Of a stretch of 64,000 nt of DNA, positions 4,181 through 64,000 are shown in pieces. Made by a program: the position numbers and the translations under genes. The notes beneath the pieces were generated by a model, which saw only the letters and a program-made list of their open reading frames with translations, had not been told where the DNA came from and did no database searches. The DNA is from an uncultured delta proteobacterium (GTDB lineage: Bacteria; Desulfobacterota; Binatia; HRBIN30). Location: the NCBI GenBank assembly GCA_963729835.1, contig CAVSQF010000039.1, positions 514,801 to 578,800 of the forward strand, read 5' to 3'. Numbering within the stretch: position 1 is the stretch's first letter; each line of letters opens with the position of its first letter.

Positions 4181-4545
4181 AGTGGCTGCGCGGATCTATA
4201 AGCCGGATTCTGTCATCTCCCACAACAGGGAGACCCATGGTCATTCCTCTCGATCGGCTGTTGCCAGCCGACTCCAGCGACACACCCGAGGGGCGCGGGC
4301 CACGCAACCCTCTGTCGGTCTTGCTCCGGGTGGGGTTTGCCGAGCACATCCGTCACCGGATCTGCTGGTGAACACGTCACCGTTTCACCGACTCCTCCGG
4401 CCACGCCGGAGGCCGTCTGCTTTCTGTGGTACTTTCCTCCGATCACTCGGAGCCGCCGTTAGCGGCCACCCCTGCCCTGTGGAGTCCGGACTTTCCTCCC
4501 GCACATCAATGCGAGCGACCATGCGATCCCGCCCAGCCACGGCTG
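4181..4545 (-). ncRNA. rnpB: RNase P RNA, bacterial type A
   Basis: Minus-strand sense carries the universally conserved GGAAAGUCCGG (plus 4487-4497 ccggactttcc) and ACAGAAUCCGGCUUAU (plus 4199-4215). P1 can be drawn between 5' GGCUGGGCGGGAUC and 3' GAUCCGCGCAGCC. Length of about 365 nt is typical. No protein-like ORF is present and GC3 coding bias is absent. Confidence 0.85.
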
Positions 4546-5324: not shown

Positions 5325-5399
5325 TGGGCCCACCAGGATTCGAACCTGGGACCTACCGGTTATGAGCCGGCGGCTCTGACCAGCCTGAGCTATGGGCCC
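5325..5399 (-). tRNA. tRNA-Met (anticodon CAU; elongator type, or possibly Ile2/k2C)
   Basis: RC gives GGGCCCAUAGCUCAGGCUGGUCAGAGCCGCCGGCUCAUAACCGGUAGGUCCCAGGUUCGAAUCCUGGUGGGCCCA. It has a 7-bp acceptor stem, D, anticodon (CU-CAU-AA) and T arms (GUUCGAAUC), a G1-C72 pair and discriminator A. No encoded CCA. Confidence 0.85.
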
Positions 5400-43809: not shown

Positions 43810-44010
43810 CTACTGCTTGCGGAGGTCTTGCTTGGTGACGTTCATGACCTTCAGGGCCAGGAAAGAGTTGCCCTGGACCTTGTAAGCCACTCGGATAACG
43901 TCCCCAGGGTCGGGGCTGAGCCCCACCTTCGCTTCGGCCACATTGAACACCGCCGTCTCTCCATGGATGGGGTTCAATTCCGGCTGAGTGTTTTTCAGCT
44001 CTAGGGTCAA
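43810..44010 (-). CDS. Hypothetical small protein
   Basis: 66 aa ORF with coding-like GC3. Its start codon lies inside the IS left inverted repeat. Confidence 0.25.
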   Translation of the reverse strand: MTLELKNTQPELNPIHGETAVFNVAEAKVGLSPDPGDVIRVAYKVQGNSFLALKVMNVTKQDLRKQ

Positions 44011-44020
44011 TGCCAGTAAC

Positions 44021-45367
44021 TTAAGGCCATCGGGGCAGTGGACCGCGGTTGGGCGGAGCCTTTTTGGCGTAGTTGCTCATTTTGATTTTGACTGCTCGCG
44101 CATAGCGACGAGGCCGGCGTTTGGGCAAGACCAGGAGCGCGATTTGTTCATGCAAGGCCGCCAGGCGCTTGGGTAGTACACCAGGACTGGCCAGCCACGC
44201 GCTGACGAGGAAGTTGCGTACGAGCATGAGTGAGTGGCGAAAGCTGATGCGCGCCGGGGGCAGTTTCAGCCGGGTAGCCACTTGGAGCATTTCGAGCCGC
44301 ACCAGATTGTAAGCAATGGCGAGTCCCCAGAGCTCTTGCAGCACTCGTTGTGGGGACTTGCTGCGCAGGGTTTCGAGACGTTCCAGGGCGTGAGTCTTTA
44401 CTTCGTCGAACCCGATCTCGAGCTCCCAGCGTTCGTGGTAGAGGTGGACGATCTCGGAGGCCGGGTAGGTGTTGGGATCGAGCAGAGAGGTCAGCAATAC
44501 CTGCGGGCGAAAGCCGCGGCGCTGGTAGCGAATGGCACGGGCAGTGAGGCACTCGGGCAACTCGGGGTGCTGCTTGCGCAGGGAGCGATTGATGCGAATC
44601 TGCACGAGATCGTCGTGGGGGCCAAGCCGGCGTACGACCTGCCACTTCAGATTGCGTTTGCTGCGACAGAGCCAGTGCCGCTCGGTGCCCTGGCTCTGGA
44701 TGGAGTAGAAGACGAAGTAATTGATGAACCCCTTGTCGACCACGGTGACACAGTGGTCGGGCAGACGGTTCCAGAGTTCCTGAGCCAGCGTTTGCTCGCC
44801 GGTGTGGTAGGAGCCCGGAACGATGTCCGCCAGCAGATGAGCCCGCAGCACCATCAGGGCGACCAGCCGGAGCTGCGGATAGGCCCCCGCACTGCGGCCA
44901 TTACATGGGCGGCCGAACACGAGCTCGTTGTCGGCCGTGTCCGCGATCAACATCGTGGTGCCATCCACCCCGTAGACGGCCAGCCCCCGCCACCGCAGCG
45001 CGGCGGCAGCCGTCCCCGCCCAGCGTTGTGCGGTTTCGCCAAACAGCACGGCCAGTGGTTCACAGCCCAGCCGATCCCGGGCCCGCACGACGGCAGTCCG
45101 GCTGACCTCGTCGTCTTCCTTGATCTCCGGCAGGACCAGATCGAGGTGCTGGACGACTTCGTCAATGCAGCGGTCGCGCAGCAGCGCCATGCCGAGCACC
45201 AGCCAGACGACCAACTCCGCGGGCAGTTTGCGCTTGCGCACACTGGCCGTGCCGGTAGCGGTCAACACCCGTCTGACCCACGCCAGGTCCAGGGTGCGGC
45301 TGAACAGCGCAAAACTCTCACTGCGATTTCCTTCTCCGAGCACCTGCAGGGCCTCTGCCAGCTCCAT
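44021..45367 (-). CDS. IS4-family DDE transposase
   Basis: 448 aa with a DDE_Tnp_1 pattern (…VYGVDGTTM…, …VVDKGF…, …YHERWELEIGFDEVK…). Confidence 0.85.
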   Translation of the reverse strand: MELAEALQVLGEGNRSESFALFSRTLDLAWVRRVLTATGTASVRKRKLPAELVVWLVLGMALLRDRCIDEVVQHLDLVLPEIKEDDEVSRTAVVRARDRLGCEPLAVLFGETAQRWAGTAAAALRWRGLAVYGVDGTTMLIADTADNELVFGRPCNGRSAGAYPQLRLVALMVLRAHLLADIVPGSYHTGEQTLAQELWNRLPDHCVTVVDKGFINYFVFYSIQSQGTERHWLCRSKRNLKWQVVRRLGPHDDLVQIRINRSLRKQHPELPECLTARAIRYQRRGFRPQVLLTSLLDPNTYPASEIVHLYHERWELEIGFDEVKTHALERLETLRSKSPQRVLQELWGLAIAYNLVRLEMLQVATRLKLPPARISFRHSLMLVRNFLVSAWLASPGVLPKRLAALHEQIALLVLPKRRPRRYARAVKIKMSNYAKKAPPNRGPLPRWP

Positions 45368-45695
45368 CCTCCTCCCCTCCTCCTCTTGCCCGTCGGTGCC
45401 GCAGCAGATCGCGATTGACGGCCGCTACCTGCTCAAGAATCTCCCAGCACCGCCGATAGACCGCCATGCCGTGGCGCACCGTGGCCACCAGCTCGCGTGG
45501 TACCGAGATCTGTTCGGTGCGTCCCCCACGATGGGTGACACTCAGATAGACCGCGCGGTGCAGCGCCCCGTCCACACAGCGACAGCTTTGCTTGCCGCAG
45601 CGCACCGAACGCTCCACCAGACTGCCGCGCAAGATCTCGTCGAGCGGAGGCAACCTCGCCAGTAGCCGCTGGCGGCGCTTCACAAGCCGATCCAT
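45318..45695 (-). CDS. IS-associated small ORF with a Cys-rich (CGKQSCRC) segment
   Basis: 125 aa lying inside the IS boundaries upstream of the transposase, overlapping its start by ~50 nt. Confidence 0.35.
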   Translation of the reverse strand: MDRLVKRRQRLLARLPPLDEILRGSLVERSVRCGKQSCRCVDGALHRAVYLSVTHRGGRTEQISVPRELVATVRHGMAVYRRCWEILEQVAAVNRDLLRHRRARGGGEEDGAGRGPAGARRRKSQ

Positions 45696-45798
45696 GCCTT
45701 ACGGTCTTATAACCGAAAGACACTCGATAGTCAAAGCCTCGTTCTTCCGTTGCGCGCTTCAACTCAGCGCAAGTGATTGCCGTGCCGGCAGAAACGCC

Positions 45799-45945
45799 TT
45801 AAGTTACTGGCATTGGCTCTAGGGTGTGGTCGGCCGGACTGAATCGCAAGCACTTGCCCTGGTAGACGTAACTCTTGGTCTCGTTGCGGCAACCCAGGAC
45901 GGACATGACCGATACCACCAGCATCAGGGTAAGTAGTCTTTTCAT
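45799..45945 (-). CDS. Putative small lipoprotein (48 aa); 3' end and stop supplied by the IS right IR
   Basis: MKRLLTLMLVVSVMSVLGC... is a signal peptide with a lipobox. The ORF terminates at a TAA inside IRR. Confidence 0.3.
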   Translation of the reverse strand: MKRLLTLMLVVSVMSVLGCRNETKSYVYQGKCLRFSPADHTLEPMPVT

Positions 45946-45962: not shown

Positions 45963-47000
45963 TCAGGCCGCGTTGGCAATGCTGTTGGCGCGCTTCTCGC
46001 GCAGCTCCTGGGCTGCACCCACGAACATGATCTTCATGATGTAAATGCAGATGGCGGTGATGGCTCCTAGAATGATCACCGTGGCCGCAGCGTTGAAGCC
46101 GAACTGTTTCAAGATGATGGAGATCATGCAGGCCACCACCGCGCAGCCAAAGAGCAGGCGGATGCCGTAGCCCTTGGTATACTTGGTGGCCACCGTACCG
46201 ATCTGCGCTCCGATAGCCGCACCGCAGAGCATCACAAAAACCGCCACCAGCTCGATCCGGCCCTTCAAGCTATACGTAAATGCGCCGTAAAGGCCGCTCA
46301 TCATCACCTCGAACAGGTCGGTACCCACCGCCACATGGGTAGGCACGCCAACGAAGTAGACCAGCGACGGCATGCGCAGGAGACCGCCGCCGATGCCCAG
46401 GAAGCCGGCCATCACGCCCGTGAGGAAAGCGATCAGCACCGGCAGCCACATCGAGCAGTAGATGCCGGCAACCTCGAAGTGGACCATGGGCGGAATCTTG
46501 ATCCTGTGCAGGGCGGGAGCCCAGTTCACGCCGCCAGTGGCGCCGGTGTGGCTGGGGTCGTCGCTCTTCCTTTTGCTGCGTACAGCCTTGCCGTAATCAT
46601 AGAAGACCATCAGCGCAATGAGCGACAGGAACACCACGTAGGTCCAGCGTACCACCGGACCAACCTGGCCGATGCGTTCCAGGGCCATGACAATCCGCGC
46701 GCCCAGTTCGATGCCAAACATGGTACCGATGACCATGATGAAGCCCAGCTTGTAGTCCACGTTGCCGAACTTGGAGTGGCGCATCGTAGAAATCATCGAT
46801 TTGCCCGCGACGTGGGCTATGTCCGTACCAATGGCGAACGCCATGGGAAAGCCGAGGATGTTGAGACCCGGCGTCACCATCCAAGCGCCCCCCATGCCGA
46901 AGAAGCCGCCGATAACCCCTACCGAGTAGCCGATCAGAAGCAGACCCGGCCAGAAAATATCCACGCCCGCAATGGGCATGTGCATGTACATCCATTCCAT
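45963..47000 (-). CDS. TSUP-family (TauE/SafE, DUF81) sulfite/anion exporter
   Basis: 345 aa with duplicated 4-TM repeats and GxGGG motifs (GGFFGMGGAWM; GFLGIGGGLL). Confidence 0.8.
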   Translation of the reverse strand: MEWMYMHMPIAGVDIFWPGLLLIGYSVGVIGGFFGMGGAWMVTPGLNILGFPMAFAIGTDIAHVAGKSMISTMRHSKFGNVDYKLGFIMVIGTMFGIELGARIVMALERIGQVGPVVRWTYVVFLSLIALMVFYDYGKAVRSKRKSDDPSHTGATGGVNWAPALHRIKIPPMVHFEVAGIYCSMWLPVLIAFLTGVMAGFLGIGGGLLRMPSLVYFVGVPTHVAVGTDLFEVMMSGLYGAFTYSLKGRIELVAVFVMLCGAAIGAQIGTVATKYTKGYGIRLLFGCAVVACMISIILKQFGFNAAATVIILGAITAICIYIMKIMFVGAAQELREKRANSIANAA

Positions 47001-47031
47001 AGTTTCCGCTCCTTGCCCCCTGACACGTAGA

Positions 47032-47325
47032 CTAGCGCTCCACGTGCCCGCCGCCCTTGGTCAGATCCAATCCGACCCGGCTCATGATCACGTCCATCAA
47101 CACCCCCAAACTCCCCCCGAGCAGCGCAGTGAACACCACTGCCCAGATGGCAAACATCCATGGGTCCTCGTTGTAGATACTTGCCAGGTAGAGACTGAAC
47201 CCGCTGAGGACACGGGTGTCGGCCACCACTACCAGATCGCCGCCCCCTTCCGCGGCGTGCGCCAATCCGGGCAGCAGAGCCCCCAGCGCTCCCGCCAAGG
47301 CTCCGATTTTGATACCCCCTGTCAT
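47032..47325 (-). CDS. DUF1634-like small membrane protein (commonly paired with TauE/SafE)
   Basis: 97 aa with 2 TM. Located immediately upstream in the same operon. Confidence 0.5.
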   Translation of the reverse strand: MTGGIKIGALAGALGALLPGLAHAAEGGGDLVVVADTRVLSGFSLYLASIYNEDPWMFAIWAVVFTALLGGSLGVLMDVIMSRVGLDLTKGGGHVER

Positions 47326-47630
47326 ACCGTTACCTCCCTCGCTTCTTTTCGAGTGTTGCAGCTGTCTTCCCCCTGCTCACCATGCAGACTTTCAGGTCAT
47401 TTTACAGCAACTTTCTCTTCAAGCCTTCAGCGTCCCCAGCAATCAGGGTCCAGCGTTAGCACAGCGGCAGCCGAGCCGGAACGGCGCCAGGTCGACAAAG
47501 AATGTGGTACCACTTGTTTGGAAAGTAGTTGACAAATGTGGTTATTTAACAACGTGTCAATGATTGGTTTCCGTTCATCCGCAGCGACGGCTGGGCGCAG
47601 TCCTTAGCAGGCTGCTGAAGAACCCCGCTC

Positions 47631-47716
47631 CATGCTTCGAGAGCCTCAGCATGAGCGGATCCCCTCCCCGAAGTTATTCAACTTTTCCGCTCACCCTGAG
47701 GCTCTCGAAGGGTGTT
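47631..47716. repeat. REP-like compound palindromic element, copy A
   Basis: Inverted pair of a ~28-nt hairpin motif: catgCTTCGAGAGCCTCAGcatgagcgg ... ccgctcacccTGAGGCTCTCGAAGggtg. A second copy lies at 60621-60745. Confidence 0.6.
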
Positions 47717-47738
47717 CTCCTCACTTTTCAGCAACCGG

Positions 47739-48962
47739 TTAGAACCTCTCGGCCGCATGCAGCGCGAGGACTTCGTTGGTGCCGTCCTCGATCAACGACG
47801 CCCGGGCATCGCGCAGCAGTTTCTCAATCGGGTACTCCTGGCTCAACCCGTTGCCGCCGAACACCTGGAGCGCTTCCGTCGCCACTTCGAAGGCCGTCTG
47901 TGTCGAAGTCACCTTCGAGGCGATGGCGTAGTGCACGGCCGGGAAGCTCCCCGGAGCGGCGCCAAAGAACGGGTTGTTGACGATGTTGTAGAGCACCACG
48001 CGGCGGTTCAGGGAGCGGGCGGCCTCGATCTTCCGGAACATCTCGAACAGCTTCATCTTGATGGTTTGGTGCTGAATGATTGGGACTCCTCCTTGCACGC
48101 GCTGCTTCGCGTACTCCACCGCCATCTCGAACGCTGCCCGGGCGCACCCCACGAAGGCGGCCCCCATGTACCCGTTAGCCGTACACAGCGTCAGCTCCAT
48201 CCCCATGGCGTACATCTCCGGGGGAATAACCATGTGCGTGATCGGGACGCGCACGTCGTCGAAGAACACCTCCCCTTGCGGCAGCGGCCGCTGGCCGAGT
48301 TTCTCGAGAGGTTTGCCGTGCGACACCCCCGGCGCCGTGAGATCCACCAGCAGCACGCCGCCGCCCGTGACCCCGTCACCATTGTCCACGGCGGTGTACA
48401 ACGCCGCCGCTTCAGCAACGGGACCGTTCGACACCCATGCCGCCTTCTGGCCGGTGATGACGTAGTAGTCGCCATCGAGGCGGGCGATGCAGTTCGGCTT
48501 GAACAAACCGGGTCGCCGGCTGCTGCCGCTCAAATCGATTGAATCGCTGCCGTGATCCGGCTCCGTGATGGCCCAACAGCCGACCTTGCCCAACGGGAAG
48601 GCCGCCATCAGGTCCGGGTTCTGCGTGGTCTGCGCCAGCATCGCGGGAAACTCGCCGGCACCGAGGCTGATCGCCAGCCCGGCATCGCCCCATCCCAGCT
48701 CCTCCGTCGCGATGCAGGTCAGCCGGGCGAGCTGCACGGGCGTGATCTCGGAGCCCGGGCCCGCCAGCATGCGGATGCCCAGCTCGTCCCACTTGTTGTG
48801 CACCTCCCACAAGAGCGAATCGTCGGCGATGACCTCGTCGGCCGAAAGGCGATCCAACGCCTGCCCGGCGGGGCGCATGACTTCCTCCGCAAACCGATGC
48901 ACGAGGTCGCGAATATTCCGTTCTTCTTCCGAAAGATCGAAGTCGATGTCTTGTAGCACCAT
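47739..48962 (-). CDS. Acyl-CoA dehydrogenase family protein
   Basis: 407 aa with ACAD N/M/C domains (…GCWAITEPDHGSD…, …YMGAAFVGCARAAFE…, …FGGNGLSQEYPIEKLLRDA…). Confidence 0.85.
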   Translation of the reverse strand: MVLQDIDFDLSEEERNIRDLVHRFAEEVMRPAGQALDRLSADEVIADDSLLWEVHNKWDELGIRMLAGPGSEITPVQLARLTCIATEELGWGDAGLAISLGAGEFPAMLAQTTQNPDLMAAFPLGKVGCWAITEPDHGSDSIDLSGSSRRPGLFKPNCIARLDGDYYVITGQKAAWVSNGPVAEAAALYTAVDNGDGVTGGGVLLVDLTAPGVSHGKPLEKLGQRPLPQGEVFFDDVRVPITHMVIPPEMYAMGMELTLCTANGYMGAAFVGCARAAFEMAVEYAKQRVQGGVPIIQHQTIKMKLFEMFRKIEAARSLNRRVVLYNIVNNPFFGAAPGSFPAVHYAIASKVTSTQTAFEVATEALQVFGGNGLSQEYPIEKLLRDARASLIEDGTNEVLALHAAERF

Positions 48963-58408: not shown

Positions 58409-58669
58409 ATGGCCTCCCTCGATTGGTCCCAATGCGCCGCCGTGGAGAGCATCCCCGGTAAAGTCAGTGGCGCATGGGTGTTTCGTGATACCCGCTTGCC
58501 GGTGGCGACCGTGATTGAGAACCTTGAGGATTTGAGCGTCGAGGAAGTGATGGAACAATTCGACGTGACGCGGGAGCAGATCACCGCGGTCCTGGATTTT
58601 GTGGCCCAGAGCCTCAAGGTGTCCGCACCGGGGCAACCCGCCGCGCCGATCGATGCGCATTCTCTTTGA
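58409..58669 (+). CDS. DUF433-family protein (putative antitoxin/DNA-binding partner)
   Basis: 86 aa with the typical DUF433 core (GKVSGAWVFRDTRLPVATVIENLEDLSVEEV). Confidence 0.55.
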   Translation: MASLDWSQCAAVESIPGKVSGAWVFRDTRLPVATVIENLEDLSVEEVMEQFDVTREQITAVLDFVAQSLKVSAPGQPAAPIDAHSL

Positions 58670-58982
58670 CCACGGAACACCAAAGGGACTTGCCCGCGCG
58701 CTTCCCGGCCACACGATCACCACCGCCCAAGCCAGAGGCTGGGACACGCTCAACAATGGCGCATTGCTGAATGCTGCAGAGGCGGCGGCGCTTGACCTCT
58801 TGCTCACGACCGACAGGAGAATCCGCTACCAGCAGAACCTCGCCGGACGAACCATTGCCCTCGTTGTGTTGACCGGGACCACGAAATGGTCACGTGTCAG
58901 ATTGCACCTTGAACGCATAGCCGCCGTGGTGAACGCGGCCACACCCGGCAGCTACACCGAAATTGATATTCCCTTCAGCTAG
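58653..58982 (+). CDS. DUF5615-family PIN-like protein (putative toxin partner of DUF433)
   Basis: MRILFDHGTPKGLARAL... Start taken at the internal ATG (58653); overlaps the upstream gene, as in DUF433/DUF5615 pairs. Confidence 0.5.
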   Translation: MRILFDHGTPKGLARALPGHTITTAQARGWDTLNNGALLNAAEAAALDLLLTTDRRIRYQQNLAGRTIALVVLTGTTKWSRVRLHLERIAAVVNAATPGSYTEIDIPFS

Positions 58983-59020
58983 CCACTGCGCGCCGCCAAC
59001 TTTGTAAATCTTATAGGAGG

Positions 59021-59215
59021 CTATGGCAGGTCATGGGGTAACCTCACACGCAGTTTCAACACGGCGACCGCGATGCGTGTTTCGAGCCGGTATCCGGGTG
59101 GCTCTACTGAGAAATTGCACAATTGCTCGCCCGGGGCGCCCGGTTGGAGGACGCGGAACACTTCAATGGTCGTTTCGGTTGGGCGGTAGAAAACCGAGAG
59201 CGGTAAGGTTGGCAT
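59021..59215 (-). pseudogene. N-terminally truncated RelE/ParE-like toxin remnant
   Basis: LSVFYRPTETTIEVFRVLQPG resembles the conserved C-terminal strand of RelE/ParE toxins. An upstream in-frame stop leaves no room for the rest of the domain. Confidence 0.3.
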
Positions 59216-59313
59216 GAGAAAATCGGTCGTTCCTGCGCCAGCGTCAAAGCATTAAATCGTCATTGCGGGCTTAAGTTGACATGTACGGCGGCTTGCCGTA
59301 TGGTGTGTCGGCT

Positions 59314-59598
59314 ATGAAACCGGACACCCAAACCACCGCTCGACTGGAAGCGCGCCTGCCGCCCGACGTTCTGGCGCGGCTGAAACGTGCGGCCGAGATC
59401 CAGGGCCTCACGCTCACGGATTTTGTCGTGGCCGCCGCCGATGAAGCCGCGTGCCGAGCCATCGAGCAAACTGAAATCATTCGTCTCTCCGTCGAGGATC
59501 AGCGACAAATCGCCGACGCGCTCCTGCATCCTCCCGCGCCGTCCGCGGCTCTGAAGAAAGCCGCCAAGCGGTATCGTGATCTGTTCGGAGCGGAATGA
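59314..59598 (+). CDS. DUF1778-family RHH antitoxin (TacA/KacA-like)
   Basis: MKPDTQTTARLEARLPPDVLARLKRAAEIQGLTLTDFVVAAA... Followed, with a 4-nt overlap, by a GNAT toxin. Confidence 0.7.
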   Translation: MKPDTQTTARLEARLPPDVLARLKRAAEIQGLTLTDFVVAAADEAACRAIEQTEIIRLSVEDQRQIADALLHPPAPSAALKKAAKRYRDLFGAE

Positions 59599-60110
59599 CC
59601 GCTTCCCCCTTTCGGTTTGAGACGCTGAGCGAGACCCACGACCGCACCGCGTTTCATTGCGGGGAGCCGGCGCTTGACCGGTATCTGCAGACGCAGGCAA
59701 CCCAGGACATCCGCCGCCGTGTTGCGAATTGCTTCGTGGCGATCGAGGCCGCGACCGGCCGCCTGGCCACCTACTACACGCTGTCGGCAGCCAGCATCCC
59801 TCTGGTGGATCTTCCCCCAGAACACACCAAACGCTTGCCGCGCTATCCCACTGTGCCGGCGGTTCGTATCGGGCGCCTCGCTGTGGACGAGACGTTTCAA
59901 GGGCGTGGCCTCGGTGCGATGTTGCTGCTGAACGCTGTACACCGCAGTTTGCAGTCCGATGCTGCGGCGTGCACGCTTCTAGTCGATGCCAAGAACGACC
60001 AGGGCGTTGCTTTCTATCGGCGTTACGGATTCCGTTCTCTGACAAGCCGCCCCCGCACGTTGTATTTGCCCCTGGCAACGGCCCAAAAGGCCATCCTGGC
60101 CGCTCACTAA
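59595..60110 (+). CDS. GNAT-family acetyltransferase toxin (TacT/KacT-like)
   Basis: 171 aa with an acetyl-CoA binding motif (RLAVDETFQGRGLGAMLL) and a GVAFYRRYGF C-terminal block. Confidence 0.75.
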   Translation: MTASPFRFETLSETHDRTAFHCGEPALDRYLQTQATQDIRRRVANCFVAIEAATGRLATYYTLSAASIPLVDLPPEHTKRLPRYPTVPAVRIGRLAVDETFQGRGLGAMLLLNAVHRSLQSDAAACTLLVDAKNDQGVAFYRRYGFRSLTSRPRTLYLPLATAQKAILAAH

Positions 60111-60468
60111 CCGCCTATGGCTCGACGAATTGCGATCTGACCTGTGCGCCAGCGACGGAACCTTCCTGCTGTTCCCTCTGTCTCGTGGTGGTGCTCCTGA
60201 TGCTCTGGGGGTGCCAGCGCTTGGCGGCGTTTGGCGGTGGTGCGAGCTTTCATAGGAGGAAGGATAGGCGCCCGTTGGGAAGTTGTCAAATGTTTACAAT
60301 AGTTGTAGGGACCGGGCCAGCAACACCAGAAACCCAGAGACCGCGCATGGCACAGGATGTGAGGGAGCGTTCTCGCTCCCCACAGCCGCGCGGCGCACGC
60401 TGCCACGGTCACTCGCCTTTCTCAATGATTTGCCCTCCTTGAGTGCCGATCTTCGAGATGTCGCACAA

Positions 60469-60815
60469 GAGTTCTTTCACAACAGCCGGAGGCTGGCACC
60501 CGGCCGCGCAGCCTGCCTCGCCAATCCGGGAAGTCCCTTACCCTAAATGGCGTGCCAAGTGCAAACGCAACGATGGCCGCTGTCACCCACCGGTCGAGAC
60601 TGTCGATCTTCTCCGGCGGGCGCCCTTCGAGACGCCGCCAGAAGAAGGCGGCTCCTCAGGGCGAGCGGTTCTGTTAGGGTTTTCCAAAGACAATTTCCGC
60701 TCACCCTGAGGAGGTCCCTTCTTTTGGGACCGTCTCGAAGGGTGTGGTTCCCGTTAATCCACAGTCTCGTTCGGTAGCTGACGGCTTTTGGCACGAGAGT
60801 TCTTCCACGACAGCC
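60469..60815. repeat. ~30-bp direct repeats (GAGTTCTTYCACRACAGCCGGAGGC) bracketing REP-like element copy B
   Basis: DR-L 60469-60499 and DR-R 60785-60815 are seen directly. Element B lies between them. Confidence 0.5.
60621..60745. repeat. REP-like compound palindromic element, copy B
   Basis: cccttcgagacgCCGCCagaagaaGGCGGctcctcagggcgagcgg ... ccgctcaccctgaggagGTCCCttcttttGGGACcgtctcgaaggg. Same architecture as copy A, with extended, mutually compensatory apical hairpins. Confidence 0.6.
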
Positions 60816-60875
60816 GGAGGCCGGACGGGGAGCGGGCGCGACAGGAAGCGCCCATCACACCTGTGGTGCTTAGCC

Positions 60876-60990
60876 TCTCAGTCGAGCGACTTTCGGAAGC
60901 GCAGTATGCTCACGCTGAGGAGTGTCGCTCCGATCACTGCCATCGCCAGCATCTGCGGCCAGAGGACGCGCAGGCCCAAGATGCCGACCG
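60876..60990 (-). pseudogene. 3' fragment of ABC-2 permease gene (copy 2, ~32 aa)
   Basis: Encodes ...LGLRVLWPQMLAMAVIGATLLSVSILRFRKSLD preceded by an in-frame stop. About 93% identical to 58104-58197. Confidence 0.5.
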
Positions 60991-61018
60991 CAACCGCAAG
61001 GATCGGCCAACCGCTCCT

Positions 61019-61276
61019 CTAGGCGCCGCGGTGGGCGTCCTTGTACGCCCGAAGAATCGAATTGATCCGCGTTTGGTACCGCTTCCCGTGCCCGCGAAAC
61101 CATTGGAGCACATCCGCGTCAATGCGGAGGGTGACCTGGGCCTTGCGCTCGATCGGTTTCAGCCCCTTGCGGACGAGTCCCTTGGCAAACACCTCGGGGG
61201 GCACTTCCGGAATGTCGGTGAGGTCGATGGCCTCAGCACTCCGGGATCTTTGCGAAGTAGCTCGTTTCCTCATTCT
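61019..61276 (-). CDS. brnA: BrnA antitoxin (COG3514 RHH)
   Basis: ...KAQVTLRIDADVLQWFRGHGKRYQTRINSILRAYKDAH is the canonical BrnA C-terminus. The start is uncertain because it overlaps brnT. Confidence 0.7.
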   Translation of the reverse strand, partial: RMRKRATSQRSRSAEAIDLTDIPEVPPEVFAKGLVRKGLKPIERKAQVTLRIDADVLQWFRGHGKRYQTRINSILRAYKDAHRGA

Positions 61277-61511
61277 TTGTCGCCTTCCGTATCGAAATGA
61301 ACCGGATCGAATCGCCGCGCTCCGTATGTGCCACCGCAACCACTCGCCCTGCCAGAATACCGAACGTGATGAAGCGGCGTTCGTCGTACTCGAATCGGGT
61401 GTCCTCGACGCTCACCGTGTAGCCGTCAAAGACTCTCTCCGCGCCGACGAAATCGATGCCGTGTTTCCGGATATTCGCCTTCCGCTTCGTCTCCTCCCAC
61501 TCGAACTCCAC
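61233..61511 (-). CDS. brnT: BrnT toxin (DUF497 ribonuclease)
   Basis: MEFEWEETKRKANIRKHGIDFVGAERVFDG...RFITFGILAGRVVAVAHTERGDSIRFISIRKAT is the canonical BrnT. Confidence 0.8.
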   Translation of the reverse strand: MEFEWEETKRKANIRKHGIDFVGAERVFDGYTVSVEDTRFEYDERRFITFGILAGRVVAVAHTERGDSIRFISIRKATKNEETSYFAKIPEC

Positions 61512-62091: not shown

Positions 62092-63333
62092 TCATGCGGC
62101 CTGTCCAAGATGTGGTGGGCCGCGATCGGTGCGGCGGTGGAAAGGCGCCGGGCTGAGGGCATGGCGAATCATGCGCCCGTGTGGACAGCGCGGGCAGCGC
62201 GTCAGGTCAATGCCCGTGAGGTGCAGCAGTCGGGTCTGCCAGTCGAGTGTAGCGCCACCGCGAGCTAGCGCAGGCTCGGGTACCAGTAGCGCAGTCGCCT
62301 GCAAGAATGCACGGGCGCGTTCGAGCTGCGTGGTGGCGTTGCCCGCGGCGAGCAGGCCGTAGTGACGGATCTTGACGAAGCCCGCGGGCAGCACGTGGAG
62401 GAGGAAGCGCCGGATAAACGTGTGCACCGGCAGGGTGATGCTGCGGCCCCCCTTGGTGGCAAAGCGCACGCCGTCAGCATCGATCGCCTGCAGGCGCTGA
62501 TTGGAGATCCCAACCCGGTGCGTGTAGCGGCCGAGATAACGGAACACATGCTGCGGCCCACCGAACGGGCGCTTGGCGTACACGACCCACTCGCTGCGGT
62601 GCAGCTCGTTGACGAGGTGTTGAAACGTGCCCGCGTCGGCGAGTGACTGCGTGCCGCCACCGAACTGCAGTTCGTCATTGCGGTACGCGGCGACGAGGGC
62701 GGCCAGAAACTTTCCACGGAAGAGCCGCGAGAGCACCTTGACGGGGAAGAGGTAACGGCGGCGGGCACTCTGCCAGCGCTGCCGGTCGACGCTGAGTCCG
62801 CCACCGGTGACGATGCAGTGCACGTGCGGGTGGAACTGCAACTCCCGCGTCCAGGTATGCAGCACGCTGGTGATGCCGAGCTGAGCGCCCAAGCGCGCCG
62901 GATCGCGACCGAGAGTGAGCAAGGTCTGCGCGGCGGCCTGAAACAGGAGCGTGAAGAGTCGCCGCCGATTACGATGGGCGAGAGGCCGTAGCGCGGCGGG
63001 CAGCGTGAAGACAACATGAAAGTAGTGCGTCGGCAGGAGGCGGGTGAGGCGCTGCTCGATCCACTGCGCCTGGCGCAGGCTCTGACACTTGGGACAGTGC
63101 CGGTTGCGGCAGGAATTGTAGGCCGGACGTTCGTGCCCGCAAGTGTCGCACACGTCCAGGTGTCCGCCCAACGCCGCGGTGCGACACGTTTCGATGGCGT
63201 GCATCGCCGCACGTTGGTCGGCGCTGACTGGGTGCCGCTGCCGGTACACCTCGCCGTGGGCGCGGAAGATCGAGGCGATCTCCAGGGCCGGGCGGGCCGC
63301 CGGGCGACACGGCTCGGCTGCCGCGTGCCCCAC
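62092..63333 (-). CDS. IS91-family (rolling-circle, HUH-Y2) transposase
   Basis: 413 aa with an N-terminal zinc-binding region (CDTCGHERPAYNSCRNRHCPKCQ), the HUH motif region (HPHVHCIVTGGG) and a C-terminal tyrosine region typical of IS91/IS801/IS1294. Confidence 0.85.
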   Translation of the reverse strand: MGHAAAEPCRPAARPALEIASIFRAHGEVYRQRHPVSADQRAAMHAIETCRTAALGGHLDVCDTCGHERPAYNSCRNRHCPKCQSLRQAQWIEQRLTRLLPTHYFHVVFTLPAALRPLAHRNRRRLFTLLFQAAAQTLLTLGRDPARLGAQLGITSVLHTWTRELQFHPHVHCIVTGGGLSVDRQRWQSARRRYLFPVKVLSRLFRGKFLAALVAAYRNDELQFGGGTQSLADAGTFQHLVNELHRSEWVVYAKRPFGGPQHVFRYLGRYTHRVGISNQRLQAIDADGVRFATKGGRSITLPVHTFIRRFLLHVLPAGFVKIRHYGLLAAGNATTQLERARAFLQATALLVPEPALARGGATLDWQTRLLHLTGIDLTRCPRCPHGRMIRHALSPAPFHRRTDRGPPHLGQAA

Positions 63334-63335
63334 GG

Positions 63336-64000
63336 TTACTCGGGCTCAGGCGCGGGCGGGAAGTCGAGGCGGTCCAGTGGACTGTGCGTCTGTCCGATCT
63401 GCAGCGTACTGACCTGAGTGTAGCGGACGGTGGTGCGAATCGAGGCATGGCCGAGCAGTTGTTGAATCGTACGGATATCGGTGCCGGCTTCCAGCAAGTG
63501 CGTGGCGAAGCAGTGCCGCAGGACGTGGGGCGTGACTCGCTTGGAAAATCCGCACGTGGCCACCACCGTCTGCAGCATGCGTTGGACGGTCGTGGGCTGC
63601 AGGTGGGGCGCCCCTTTCGTCCCGGGGAACAGGAACGACCCCGGCGGCTTGACCAGACGCCAGTACTCCCGCAGCACCGCCAGGAGTCGGTCGCCCAGCA
63701 TGACGTAGCGATCCTTGCCCCCCTTGCCGTCGCGCACGTGGATGACCATGCGTTGACTGTCGATGTCGGCGACCTGGAGGGAGCACACCTCACTGATCCG
63801 CAAGCCGGCACCATAGGCGAGCATCAGGACGACCCGGTGTTTGAGGGAGCGCACGGCGCTCAACAGCTGCGTGATCTCACCGGGGGTGAGAATATCGGGC
63901 AGCCGCTGCGGGACCTGGGGCCAAGGAATATGCGCCACCACTTCGGGGCGACGCAGCGTGTTTACGTACAAGAACTTCAACGCCGCGACGTACATCCGTA
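63336..64000 (-). CDS. Tyrosine recombinase/integrase (C-terminal catalytic domain; N-terminus beyond window)
   Basis: R..HxxR..Y catalytic box (…TPHVLRHCFATHLLEAGTDIRTIQQLLGHASIRTTVRYTQVS…). Confidence 0.8.
   Translation of the reverse strand, partial: RMYVAALKFLYVNTLRRPEVVAHIPWPQVPQRLPDILTPGEITQLLSAVRSLKHRVVLMLAYGAGLRISEVCSLQVADIDSQRMVIHVRDGKGGKDRYVMLGDRLLAVLREYWRLVKPPGSFLFPGTKGAPHLQPTTVQRMLQTVVATCGFSKRVTPHVLRHCFATHLLEAGTDIRTIQQLLGHASIRTTVRYTQVSTLQIGQTHSPLDRLDFPPAPEPE

Follow-up and report, generated by a model that had tools for sequence, protein, structure and literature searches.

Two probable MITEs of different families that share a REP-type hairpin doublet

Introduction

Bacterial MITEs such as the Correia elements of Neisseria and RUP of Streptococcus are derived from IS elements. 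The two elements described in this study resemble IS-derived MITEs in their length class (100-250 bp), the lack of coding capacity, the terminal inverted repeats, the target duplications, the dispersed intergenic copies, and the folding into long hairpins, whereas their sequences are unrelated to those of Correia or RUP. They also resemble REPINs with RAYT (PMC3116915, PMC2817692), in that two inverted imperfect palindromes separated by a fixed spacer form either one long hairpin or two hairpins.

Several properties of REPs and IS elements are pertinent to this comparison. CGTC REPs lack a transposase of their own (Di Nocera et al. 2013, PMC3733652), and their definition comprises an unpaired end tag, a stem of 8-9 bp that begins with A-T pairs, a loop of 4-5 nt, and a CCA tail (PMC3733652). 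The predominance of dimers with unlike partners was suggested to protect REPs against palindrome-cleaving enzymes (Di Nocera et al., PMC3733652). According to Tobes & Pareja 2006, as cited in PMC5082802, the REP/BIME sequences of E. coli are insertion targets of IS621, other IS110-family elements, and IS1397. IS5 is known to duplicate a 4-bp YTAR target (PMC5009759).

Here we analysed a 64-kb stretch of DNA (hereafter the window) that contains two compound palindromes, copy A and copy B. We propose, with a probability of about three in four, that they are two MITEs of different families that share a REP-doublet core and are moved in trans by DDE transposases.

Results

Architecture of the hairpin core

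The initial annotation had described a REP-like compound palindrome, composed of an inverted pair of one motif, at 47631-47716 (copy A) and 60621-60745 (copy B). Both loci are present, and these intervals locate the cores rightly; the whole elements are longer, extending over 47608-47738 and 60596-60768, respectively. In both loci the hairpin CACCCT-GAG-(apical part)-CTC-GA-AGGGTG occurs as an inverted pair. Each arm consists of a 6-bp CACCCT/AGGGTG stem, a GA bulge, GAG/CTC, and a variable apex, and has no CCA tail. Copy A has a 3-nt loop as its apex, and copy B a 6-bp stem with a 7-nt loop. The arms of copy A (47635-47659 and 47686-47710) are 25 nt long and 92% complementary, and those of copy B (60623-60668 and 60697-60742) are 46 nt long and 83% complementary, with an 11-nt apical inverted repeat of its own in each arm. 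The distance between the motif cores is 38 nt in both copies (47653 to 47692 and 60663 to 60702), and not 40-48 nt as first estimated.

The two arms of each copy differ from one another. In copy A, CATG...CATG in the left arm corresponds to CACC...GGTG in the right arm, and in copy B the left-arm apical stem GCCGCC/GGCGGC corresponds to GGTCCC/GGGACC. The compensatory base changes between the arms, as well as the additional apical hairpins of copy B, had been recognized in the initial annotation, and every arm indeed remains self-complementary: no non-canonical pair was flagged when the four arms were aligned to the covariance model described below. RNA folding gave -50.8 kcal/mol for copy A (z = -9.0) and -87.7 kcal/mol for copy B (z = -8.1), and none of 200 shuffled sequences was as good in either case. 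In DNA folding each arm makes its own hairpin, and copy A forms a single long hairpin of -37.1 kcal/mol (z = -9).

A blastn-short search within the window found only the two copies, whose identical stretches (18 and 13 nt) lie in the core alone. The copies are thus not part of a larger duplicated segment, which the initial annotation had named as an explanation that would undermine its reading. A covariance model was built from 36 equal-length alphaproteobacterial monomers and no window sequence, and is therefore independent of the window. When the 64 kb were searched with this model, the four window arms were the top four matches (E = 1.5e-9, 5.3e-9, 5.7e-6, and 0.023); the fifth (E = 0.096) lies within a coding region, and no match beyond the four arms is credible. 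As judged from these scores, a chance origin of the four arms is excluded, in agreement with the earlier view that the similarity exceeds chance.

Element families, ends, and target duplications

Further copies, for which the initial annotation had proposed a genome-wide search, were sought in public data. A scan of species-representative genomes with the pattern CACCCTGAGG-N(2-32)-CTCGAAGGGTG and a metagenome doublet scan with the pattern CTCAG-NNN-GAGCGG-N(22-52)-CACCCTGAGG each returned at least 120 loci, and more than 240 further loci with the hairpin core were found in total, indicating a large dispersed family. Among the matches listed, 73 distinct loci match copy B and 25 match copy A. 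The superfamily core can be written as CCGCTCA-CC-CT GAG (apical hairpin or GCT) CTC GA AG-GG-TGAGCGG, and the doublet spacers are tightly clustered at 28-35 nt among the matches listed.

Alignments including the flanks showed that conservation stops sharply at defined boundaries, and three end types were distinguished. The consensus boundaries are CTAG|CAGCCCGTTGAAAAAGG ... CCTTTTTCAACGGGCTG|CTAG for the A-type, to which copy A belongs, GAGACTGTCGAT ... ATCGACAGTCTC for the B-type, to which copy B belongs, and CAATGCCAGTGAGTTAAG ... CTTAACTCACTGGCATTG for the C/D-type. The element-end patterns were CAGSMYGYTGAARAA and GRGACTGTCGAT. No match to these families was found in Rfam, the Di Nocera catalogue, or the searched literature, and they appear to be undescribed.

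The 4-mers that flank the B-type elements are identical in 13 of 24 cases and agree at three of the four positions in 5 more, among the matches listed, where an identical pair would be expected by chance in 1 of 256; the B-type targets show no consensus. The corresponding 4-mers of the A-type are identical in 8 of 18 cases and agree at three positions in 8 more (among the matches listed), and are mostly YTAR. Non-palindromic A-type 4-mers recur as direct repeats (TTAG/TTAG, CTAA/CTAA, and CTAC/CTAC) and never as inverted ones, the TTAG/TTAG pair being found at copy A of the window and at loci L170 and L241. These repeats rule out a duplication of TA only, as in the IS630 model, and favour a 4-bp duplication for the A-type. 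In the C/D-type, 8 of 12 copies among the matches listed are exact at offset 3, corresponding to 10-bp direct repeats centred on CTAG.

Both window copies thus have terminal inverted repeats, are small and non-coding, and belong to sets of many dispersed copies in unrelated flanks. They are also bordered by target-site duplications: TTAG/TTAG at copy A, and GGTC/GTTC, read together with the family pattern, at copy B. The terminal inverted repeats and the target-site duplications identify both copies as MITEs, and the duplications at the outer ends, together with the end-to-end conservation, indicate that the whole element is the unit copied.

The A-type and C/D-type targets are related to gene ends. 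In 10 of 22 A-type assignments among the matches listed, a gene-sized, high-GC3 ORF ends inside the duplication; 6 mismatches were allowed in this set, so that a few boundaries are spurious and that of the window's own copy is mis-set. In 6 of the 12 C/D-type copies listed, the duplication contains the stop codon of a gene-sized, high-GC3 ORF. At L137 and L216, each of two convergent genes terminates within one of the two copies of the target duplication, which implies that before insertion the genes shared an overlapping CTAG-type stop site. The gene contexts of the A-type, among the matches listed, are convergent in 9 cases, tandem in 4, and divergent in 1. The initial annotation had called for a check of strand and position relative to gene ends; no orientation bias emerged for the A-type, the left end abutting a gene in 7 cases and the right end in 4 (5 with copy A of the window).

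B-type copies often lie within the loops of other GC-rich hairpins. Among the matches listed, about 10 of the 22 rebuilt B-type sites can be seen to form a hairpin that carries the duplication in its loop. The difference in folding energy was weak (-7.2 kcal/mol versus -5.9 kcal/mol for mismatched flanks), and the idea that the B-type targets hairpin loops was set aside.

Copy A and the acyl-CoA dehydrogenase gene

Copy A is an A-type MITE of 131 bp (47608-47738, plus strand), delimited by the family consensus. It begins with the left end CAGGCTGCTGAAGAACC (47608-47624), followed by the left-arm hairpin of the CATG...CATG type (47626-47659; core 47631-47653), the spacer (47660-47685), the right arm of the CACC...GGTG type (47686-47714; core 47692-47714), and the right end CACTTTTCAGCAACCGG (47722-47738). 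The ends are imperfect, matching at 11 of 17 positions, and the outer inverted repeat extends over 47605-47619 and 47727-47741. Copy A is 90% identical over 129 nt to a copy at locus L172, whose flanks are different.

The element is bordered by TTAG at 47604-47607 and by the identical 4-mer at 47739-47742. The acyl-CoA dehydrogenase gene (47739-48962, minus strand), assigned by its ORF and Pfam Acyl-CoA_dh domains, ends at the latter, so that copy A adjoins the 3' end of this gene, as the initial annotation had stated. On the minus strand the right TTAG reads C+TAA, i.e. the last base of a Phe codon and the TAA stop codon. Judged by the reading frame, the target duplication preserves the stop codon of the acyl-CoA dehydrogenase gene.

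Further copies are abundant elsewhere. As for the point raised earlier of conservation in relatives, the element is not conserved: the locus of the closest acyl-CoA dehydrogenase ortholog (L121, 89% protein identity) is without it. The similarity between L121 and the window stops exactly at the acyl-CoA dehydrogenase stop codon, downstream of which L121 is rearranged, and a clean empty site was recovered for neither window copy. Another ortholog locus (L124, 86%) has just one degenerate monomer, 145 nt downstream. The dehydrogenase protein itself is 100% identical to an NCBI protein; of its more distant homologs, several bear the name Candidatus Binatia and others are assigned to Deltaproteobacteria or to further MAG taxa. 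The window DNA probably comes from a Binatia-like bacterium.

In the compared region of L121 (5221-6849), a gene for a 505-aa protein with a Cytidylate_kin2 domain separates the acyl-CoA dehydrogenase gene from the TauE gene. This gene is missing from 47000-47739 of the window, which instead has about 740 bp containing copy A and a 97-aa ORF of unassigned family. In the same region, 47566-47586 (TGGTTTCCGTTCATCCGCAG) resembles both copy B in its subterminal part on the right side (TGGTTCCCGTTAATCCACAG, 60745-60764) and a right arm in its 5' half, and may be an element remnant.

Copy B and its surroundings

Copy B is a B-type MITE of 173 bp (60596-60768, plus strand), delimited by the consensus boundaries and by full-length relatives. 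Its 12-nt inverted ends are GAGACTGTCGAT (60596-60607) and ATCCACAGTCTC (60757-60768), between which lie the left arm with the apical stem GCCGCC/GGCGGC (60621-60663), the spacer (60664-60701), and the right arm with the apical stem GGTCCC/GGGACC (60702-60744). The flanking 4-mers GGTC (60592-60595) and GTTC (60769-60772) match at three of four positions, which we regard as a decayed duplication. Copies in unrelated metagenome contigs are 92-94% identical to copy B over 172-178 nt, and these alignments begin at 60596-60598 and end at 60766-60769. A Binatia MAG locus (L026) contains a B-type copy 83% identical over 145 nt; it shares this 145-nt element alone with the window, and the flanks are unrelated.

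Copy B lies in a cluster of accessory genes (58409-61511) encoding a DUF433 protein (58409-58669), a GNAT acetyltransferase (59595-60110), the BrnA antitoxin (61019-61339), and the BrnT toxin (61233-61511); its placement in toxin-antitoxin surroundings by the initial annotation was correct. About 1.3 kb away are an IS91-family Y2 rolling-circle transposase gene (62092-63333, minus strand; Y2_Tnp and Zn_Tnp_IS91) and an adjoining tyrosine recombinase gene at the window edge (63336-63995, minus strand), and no link of this pair to the hairpins was seen.

Transposase partners

The window contains a complete IS4-family insertion sequence (44008-45815, minus strand), with an inverted end pair and an ORF (44021-45367) having the Pfam domains Nterm_IS4 and DDE_Tnp_1. 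Its 20-nt ends are perfect (CAATGCCAGTAACTTAAGGC), and it is bordered by a 10-bp duplication, GCTCTAGGGT, at 43998-44007 and 45816-45825. The C/D-type ends are identical to these ends at 16 of 19 positions, and both have 10-bp duplications centred on CTAG. In addition, the C/D end CAATGCCAGTGAGTTAAGC matches the end of E. coli IS4, TAATGCCAGTCAGTTAAGC, at 17 of 19 positions. The long duplication and ends (TAATGCCAGTCAGTTAAG) of IS4 are thus alike to those of the C/D-type. From this likeness in sequence, the window IS4-family element is likely an autonomous relative of the C/D-type MITE family; the covariance model detected no hairpin monomer inside it.

For the other two families, neither the window nor about 1.5 Mb of fetched loci yielded a transposase gene bounded by A-type or B-type ends, so that we infer their mobilization in trans from the ends and duplications only. 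The A-type fits IS5 in the 4-bp YTAR duplication; it is likened to IS5 by the duplication, not by the end sequences. No IS was identified that matches the end type of copy B. At L240, two inverted B-type ends enclose 3.2 kb, a candidate that was discarded because it holds a glycosyltransferase gene and no transposase gene. None of the solitary A-type end matches in the window and fetched loci belongs to an IS. A scan of viral contigs gave 0 matches with the A ends and 5 with the B ends, the latter mostly in coding sequence and attributable to chance, and a BLAST search of copy B against PLSDB plasmids gave no match. A motif scan of the window and fetched loci found no RAYT-like ORF, and the sole tblastn match to E. 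coli RayT in these sequences was dismissed as being antisense in an rpmE gene.

Distribution and covariation of the core

Among the matches listed, those of the genome scan are mostly in Alphaproteobacteria (Reyranella, Bradyrhizobium, Pseudolabrys, Rhodoplanes, and others), and a short hairpin form occurs in Bacteroidota, Chloroflexota, Armatimonadota, Thermodesulfobacteriota, and one Binatia MAG. By sequence resemblance, the core superfamily spans Alphaproteobacteria, Binatia-like bacteria, Bacteroidota, Chloroflexota, and other phyla.

The pairing is maintained within each arm. In the 113 distinct doublets among the matches listed, the outer stem of the left arm varies at three positions. 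These are Watson-Crick paired within the arm in 90 doublets, with 9 pair types, versus a full match to the right arm in only 3, which shows that the hairpin inside each arm is the conserved feature. The arms of one doublet are almost always unlike, differing by 1-3 base pairs, and each is self-complementary. The covariation noted in the initial annotation therefore stands as far as the pairing within an arm is concerned. The stems specific to one arm are a different matter: GCCGCC on the left and GGTCCC on the right in copy B are common to the whole B family, so that they are inherited family traits and not changes that arose at these two loci.

The alphaproteobacterial apical stems comprise 58 distinct 5' sequences among the matches listed, all perfectly paired. 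In the 36 equal-length alphaproteobacterial copies, 63 double-change cells were counted in the apical stem, a value reached by none of 500 shuffles. The variable stems have almost no G-U (G-T) pairs. Among the 105 distinct long alphaproteobacterial monomers in the matches listed, 53 have a GNA triloop (GAA, GCA, GTA, or GGA) and 93 have a C-G closing pair; in DNA, C-GNA-G triloops are of exceptional stability (abstracts of PMC3201870 and PMC13037366). In alphaproteobacterial doublets, CACC is paired with CATC, CATG, or CACC partners, and the doublets are flanked by ACCT and AGGT, with no further conserved ends and no MITE framework. Five Bacteroidota loci (L014, L033, L052, L076, and L096) have the short CACC...GGTG hairpin followed, after 15-50 nt, by a CATGCTTCGAG.GCCTCAGCATG hairpin. 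This unlike hairpin pair is that of copy A of the window, in the opposite relative arrangement.

A second monomer is nested in the apical loop of the right arm at seven loci (L176, L223, L226, L227, L233, L235, and L143) and in that of the left arm at seven (L026, L168, L176, L192, L195, L231, and L245). The hosts are of the B-, C-, and D-types, both orientations occur, and nearly the same insert is found in hosts of different families.

Some individual loci show further variation. A B-like copy (L205, 3092-3270) has CGGGC...GCCCG in place of CACCC...GGGTG in the right arm, a triple compensatory change by which the arm hairpin is kept and the pairing with the left arm is broken. At L009, which is alphaproteobacterial, a direct duplication of about 30 nt, comprising a gene 3' end and its stop codon, flanks the hairpin doublet. 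An IS110-family element (DEDD_Tnp_IS110 and Transposase_20) occupies the left-arm apical site, between CTTTCGAGAC and CTCAG, in full at L149 and L222, and only a 51-nt piece of it is left at that site in L151, L178, L189, and L210.

Searches for described RNAs were negative for the hairpins. Rfam at the gathering threshold gave only a bacterial class A RNase P RNA (4183-4535, minus strand) and one tRNA gene (5325-5399, minus strand), which lie elsewhere in the window and are unrelated to the hairpins, and at E up to 5 only spurious miRNA and snoRNA models overlapped copy B. A resemblance of CUGAGGA to the CUGANGA of hammerhead-like ribozymes was rejected, as no GAAA follows stem II and no Rfam match was obtained.

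Discussion

The MITE interpretation is supported by the observed inverted ends, target duplications, conservation of the whole element in unrelated flanks, and absence of the element at the nearest ortholog locus. In the mechanism that we propose, each family would be moved in trans by cut-and-paste, a DDE transposase recognizing its ends. For copy A, the 4-bp YTAR duplication, which is the hallmark of IS5, points to mobilization by an IS5-type enzyme. The YTAR and CTAG targets would double as stop codons, and insertion would regenerate the stop of the gene. The unlike arms may serve to avoid one long perfect palindrome while leaving two stable hairpins; on comparison with other REP dimers, protection against palindrome-cleaving enzymes seems the likeliest role of this difference. 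The hairpins themselves could have a role at the level of single-stranded DNA, in transposition or replication, or at that of RNA, where they might form a 3' structure of the transcript or a terminator.

The last of these roles is the basis of an explanation that is compatible with mobility, and that we consider unlikely as the reason for the conservation: the hairpins would be structured RNA, kept for transcripts either as an intrinsic terminator that works in both directions or as a stabilizer of mRNA 3' ends. The A-type copies are situated at gene 3' ends, copy A following directly after a stop codon; the predicted folds are strong, and the stems covary. Furthermore, the A-type consensus places GAAAAAGG...CCTTTTTC around GC-rich hairpins, an A-tract/U-tract layout in both orientations that makes a terminator role possible from the sequence. 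The 3'-end position is, however, already accounted for, because the YTAR and CTAG targets are stop codons in a genome of 63% GC, and the element can face the gene with either of its ends. A terminator scan, in which only loops of 3-8 nt were allowed, found nothing at either window copy, whose U-tracts are weak or absent (copy A has just CTTTTC and TTCTTC). Neither the lack of an Rfam family, even at E up to 5, nor the near absence of G-U intermediates in the variable stems agrees with such a function. The initial annotation had argued from the covariation for selection on RNA or cruciform structure; this argument is not sustained, since there is neither an Rfam match nor an orientation bias and since copying at the DNA level also keeps Watson-Crick palindromes.

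The core itself may be more than a passenger. That three unrelated end types share it suggests, beyond the simple MITE model, that the core has a mobility or function of its own, and the nested monomers and the alphaproteobacterial doublets outside any MITE framework suggest the same. The IS110-family element at the apical site and the frequent position of B-type copies in hairpin loops, for which the statistics are weak, are also compatible with it. We hold it to be quite unlikely, in its full form, that the hairpin doublet, including the pairing of CACC...GGTG with CATG...CATG, is a mobile or selected module that crosses phyla, inserts into hairpin loops, and has been captured repeatedly by MITEs of three end types. 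If this were true, hitch-hiking in MITEs and an enzyme acting on hairpins would explain the spread of orphan REPs without RAYT.

A still more doubtful explanation is that the elements are REPINs, in which the hairpin doublet would itself be mobile via single-stranded DNA and a single-copy RAYT, and the outer repeats would be incidental extensions. The inverted doublet and its spacer of conserved length (28-35 nt) have the REPIN architecture, and the alphaproteobacterial doublets between ACCT and AGGT lack further conserved ends. The occurrence of one core in three end frameworks and the monomers nested in apical loops in both orientations also suggest mobility at the level of the hairpin, to which the GNA triloops with C-G closing pairs, which are stable in DNA, may be added. 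The outer boundary speaks against REPINs. Transposition by HUH Y1 enzymes leaves no target duplication, unlike the elements studied here, in which 4-bp and 10-bp duplications border the outer ends and, with the end-to-end conservation, indicate that the whole element is copied; insertion of the doublet as a unit, free of duplication, is not what was observed. Neither a RAYT-like ORF nor a GTAG tag was found in the window or loci. Finally, a fortuitous resemblance, or the duplication of a local segment that belongs to no family, to which the presence of only two copies in 64 kb sharing 18 and 13 identical nt might point, is hardly conceivable in view of the more than 240 further loci in public data, the covariance-model E-values down to 1.5e-9, and the unrelated flanks.

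We therefore return to the two MITEs with a common core. They are selfish DNA of a common sort, unusual in some details, and belong to a known kind, MITE or REP doublet. For annotation of the window, two intergenic palindromes and one IS can be described as mobile DNA. The MITE interpretation also provides a testable route by which REP-type hairpins would multiply without a dedicated transposase, namely by riding in IS4-type or YTAR-duplicating (IS5-like) MITEs, and in a GC-rich genome, landing on CTAG or YTAR stop codons would do no harm. The maintenance across phyla of one hairpin frame with slightly unlike hairpin pairs is unusual for REPs.

The comparison with known systems can be summarized as follows. 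Like the GTAG- and CGTC-tagged REPs (PMC3733652), the present hairpins form extragenic head-to-head or tail-to-tail dimers in which unlike partners predominate, and occur in several phyla. CGTC (or CCTC) adjoins the apical stem in the long arms. Membership in that class was rejected by the defining layout, as the arms have a 6-bp stem, a GA bulge, a variable apex, and no CCA tail; the arm motif is absent from the text and supplements of Di Nocera et al. 2013 (PMC3733652). Br-REP1 and Br-REP2 of Bradyrhizobium were also rejected, their sequences differing from this motif, and a search of the literature for the motif sequence strings returned nothing relevant. Unlike REPINs with RAYT, the elements have target duplications and outer inverted repeats, and have neither a GTAG tag nor a detected RAYT; REPIN sequences are usually lineage-specific, whereas the monomer frame is conserved across phyla. 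The IS110-family element in the left-arm apical site, as well as the B-type copies in hairpin loops (for which the statistics are weak), recalls the role of E. coli REP/BIME sequences as insertion targets, and differs in that the hairpin element is here carried inside MITEs. In comparison with known MITEs, one REP-doublet core is combined with three end types, i.e. YTAR with a 4-bp duplication, a 4-bp duplication without consensus, and IS4-like ends with a 10-bp duplication, and the A- and C/D-types land on stop codons and regenerate them.
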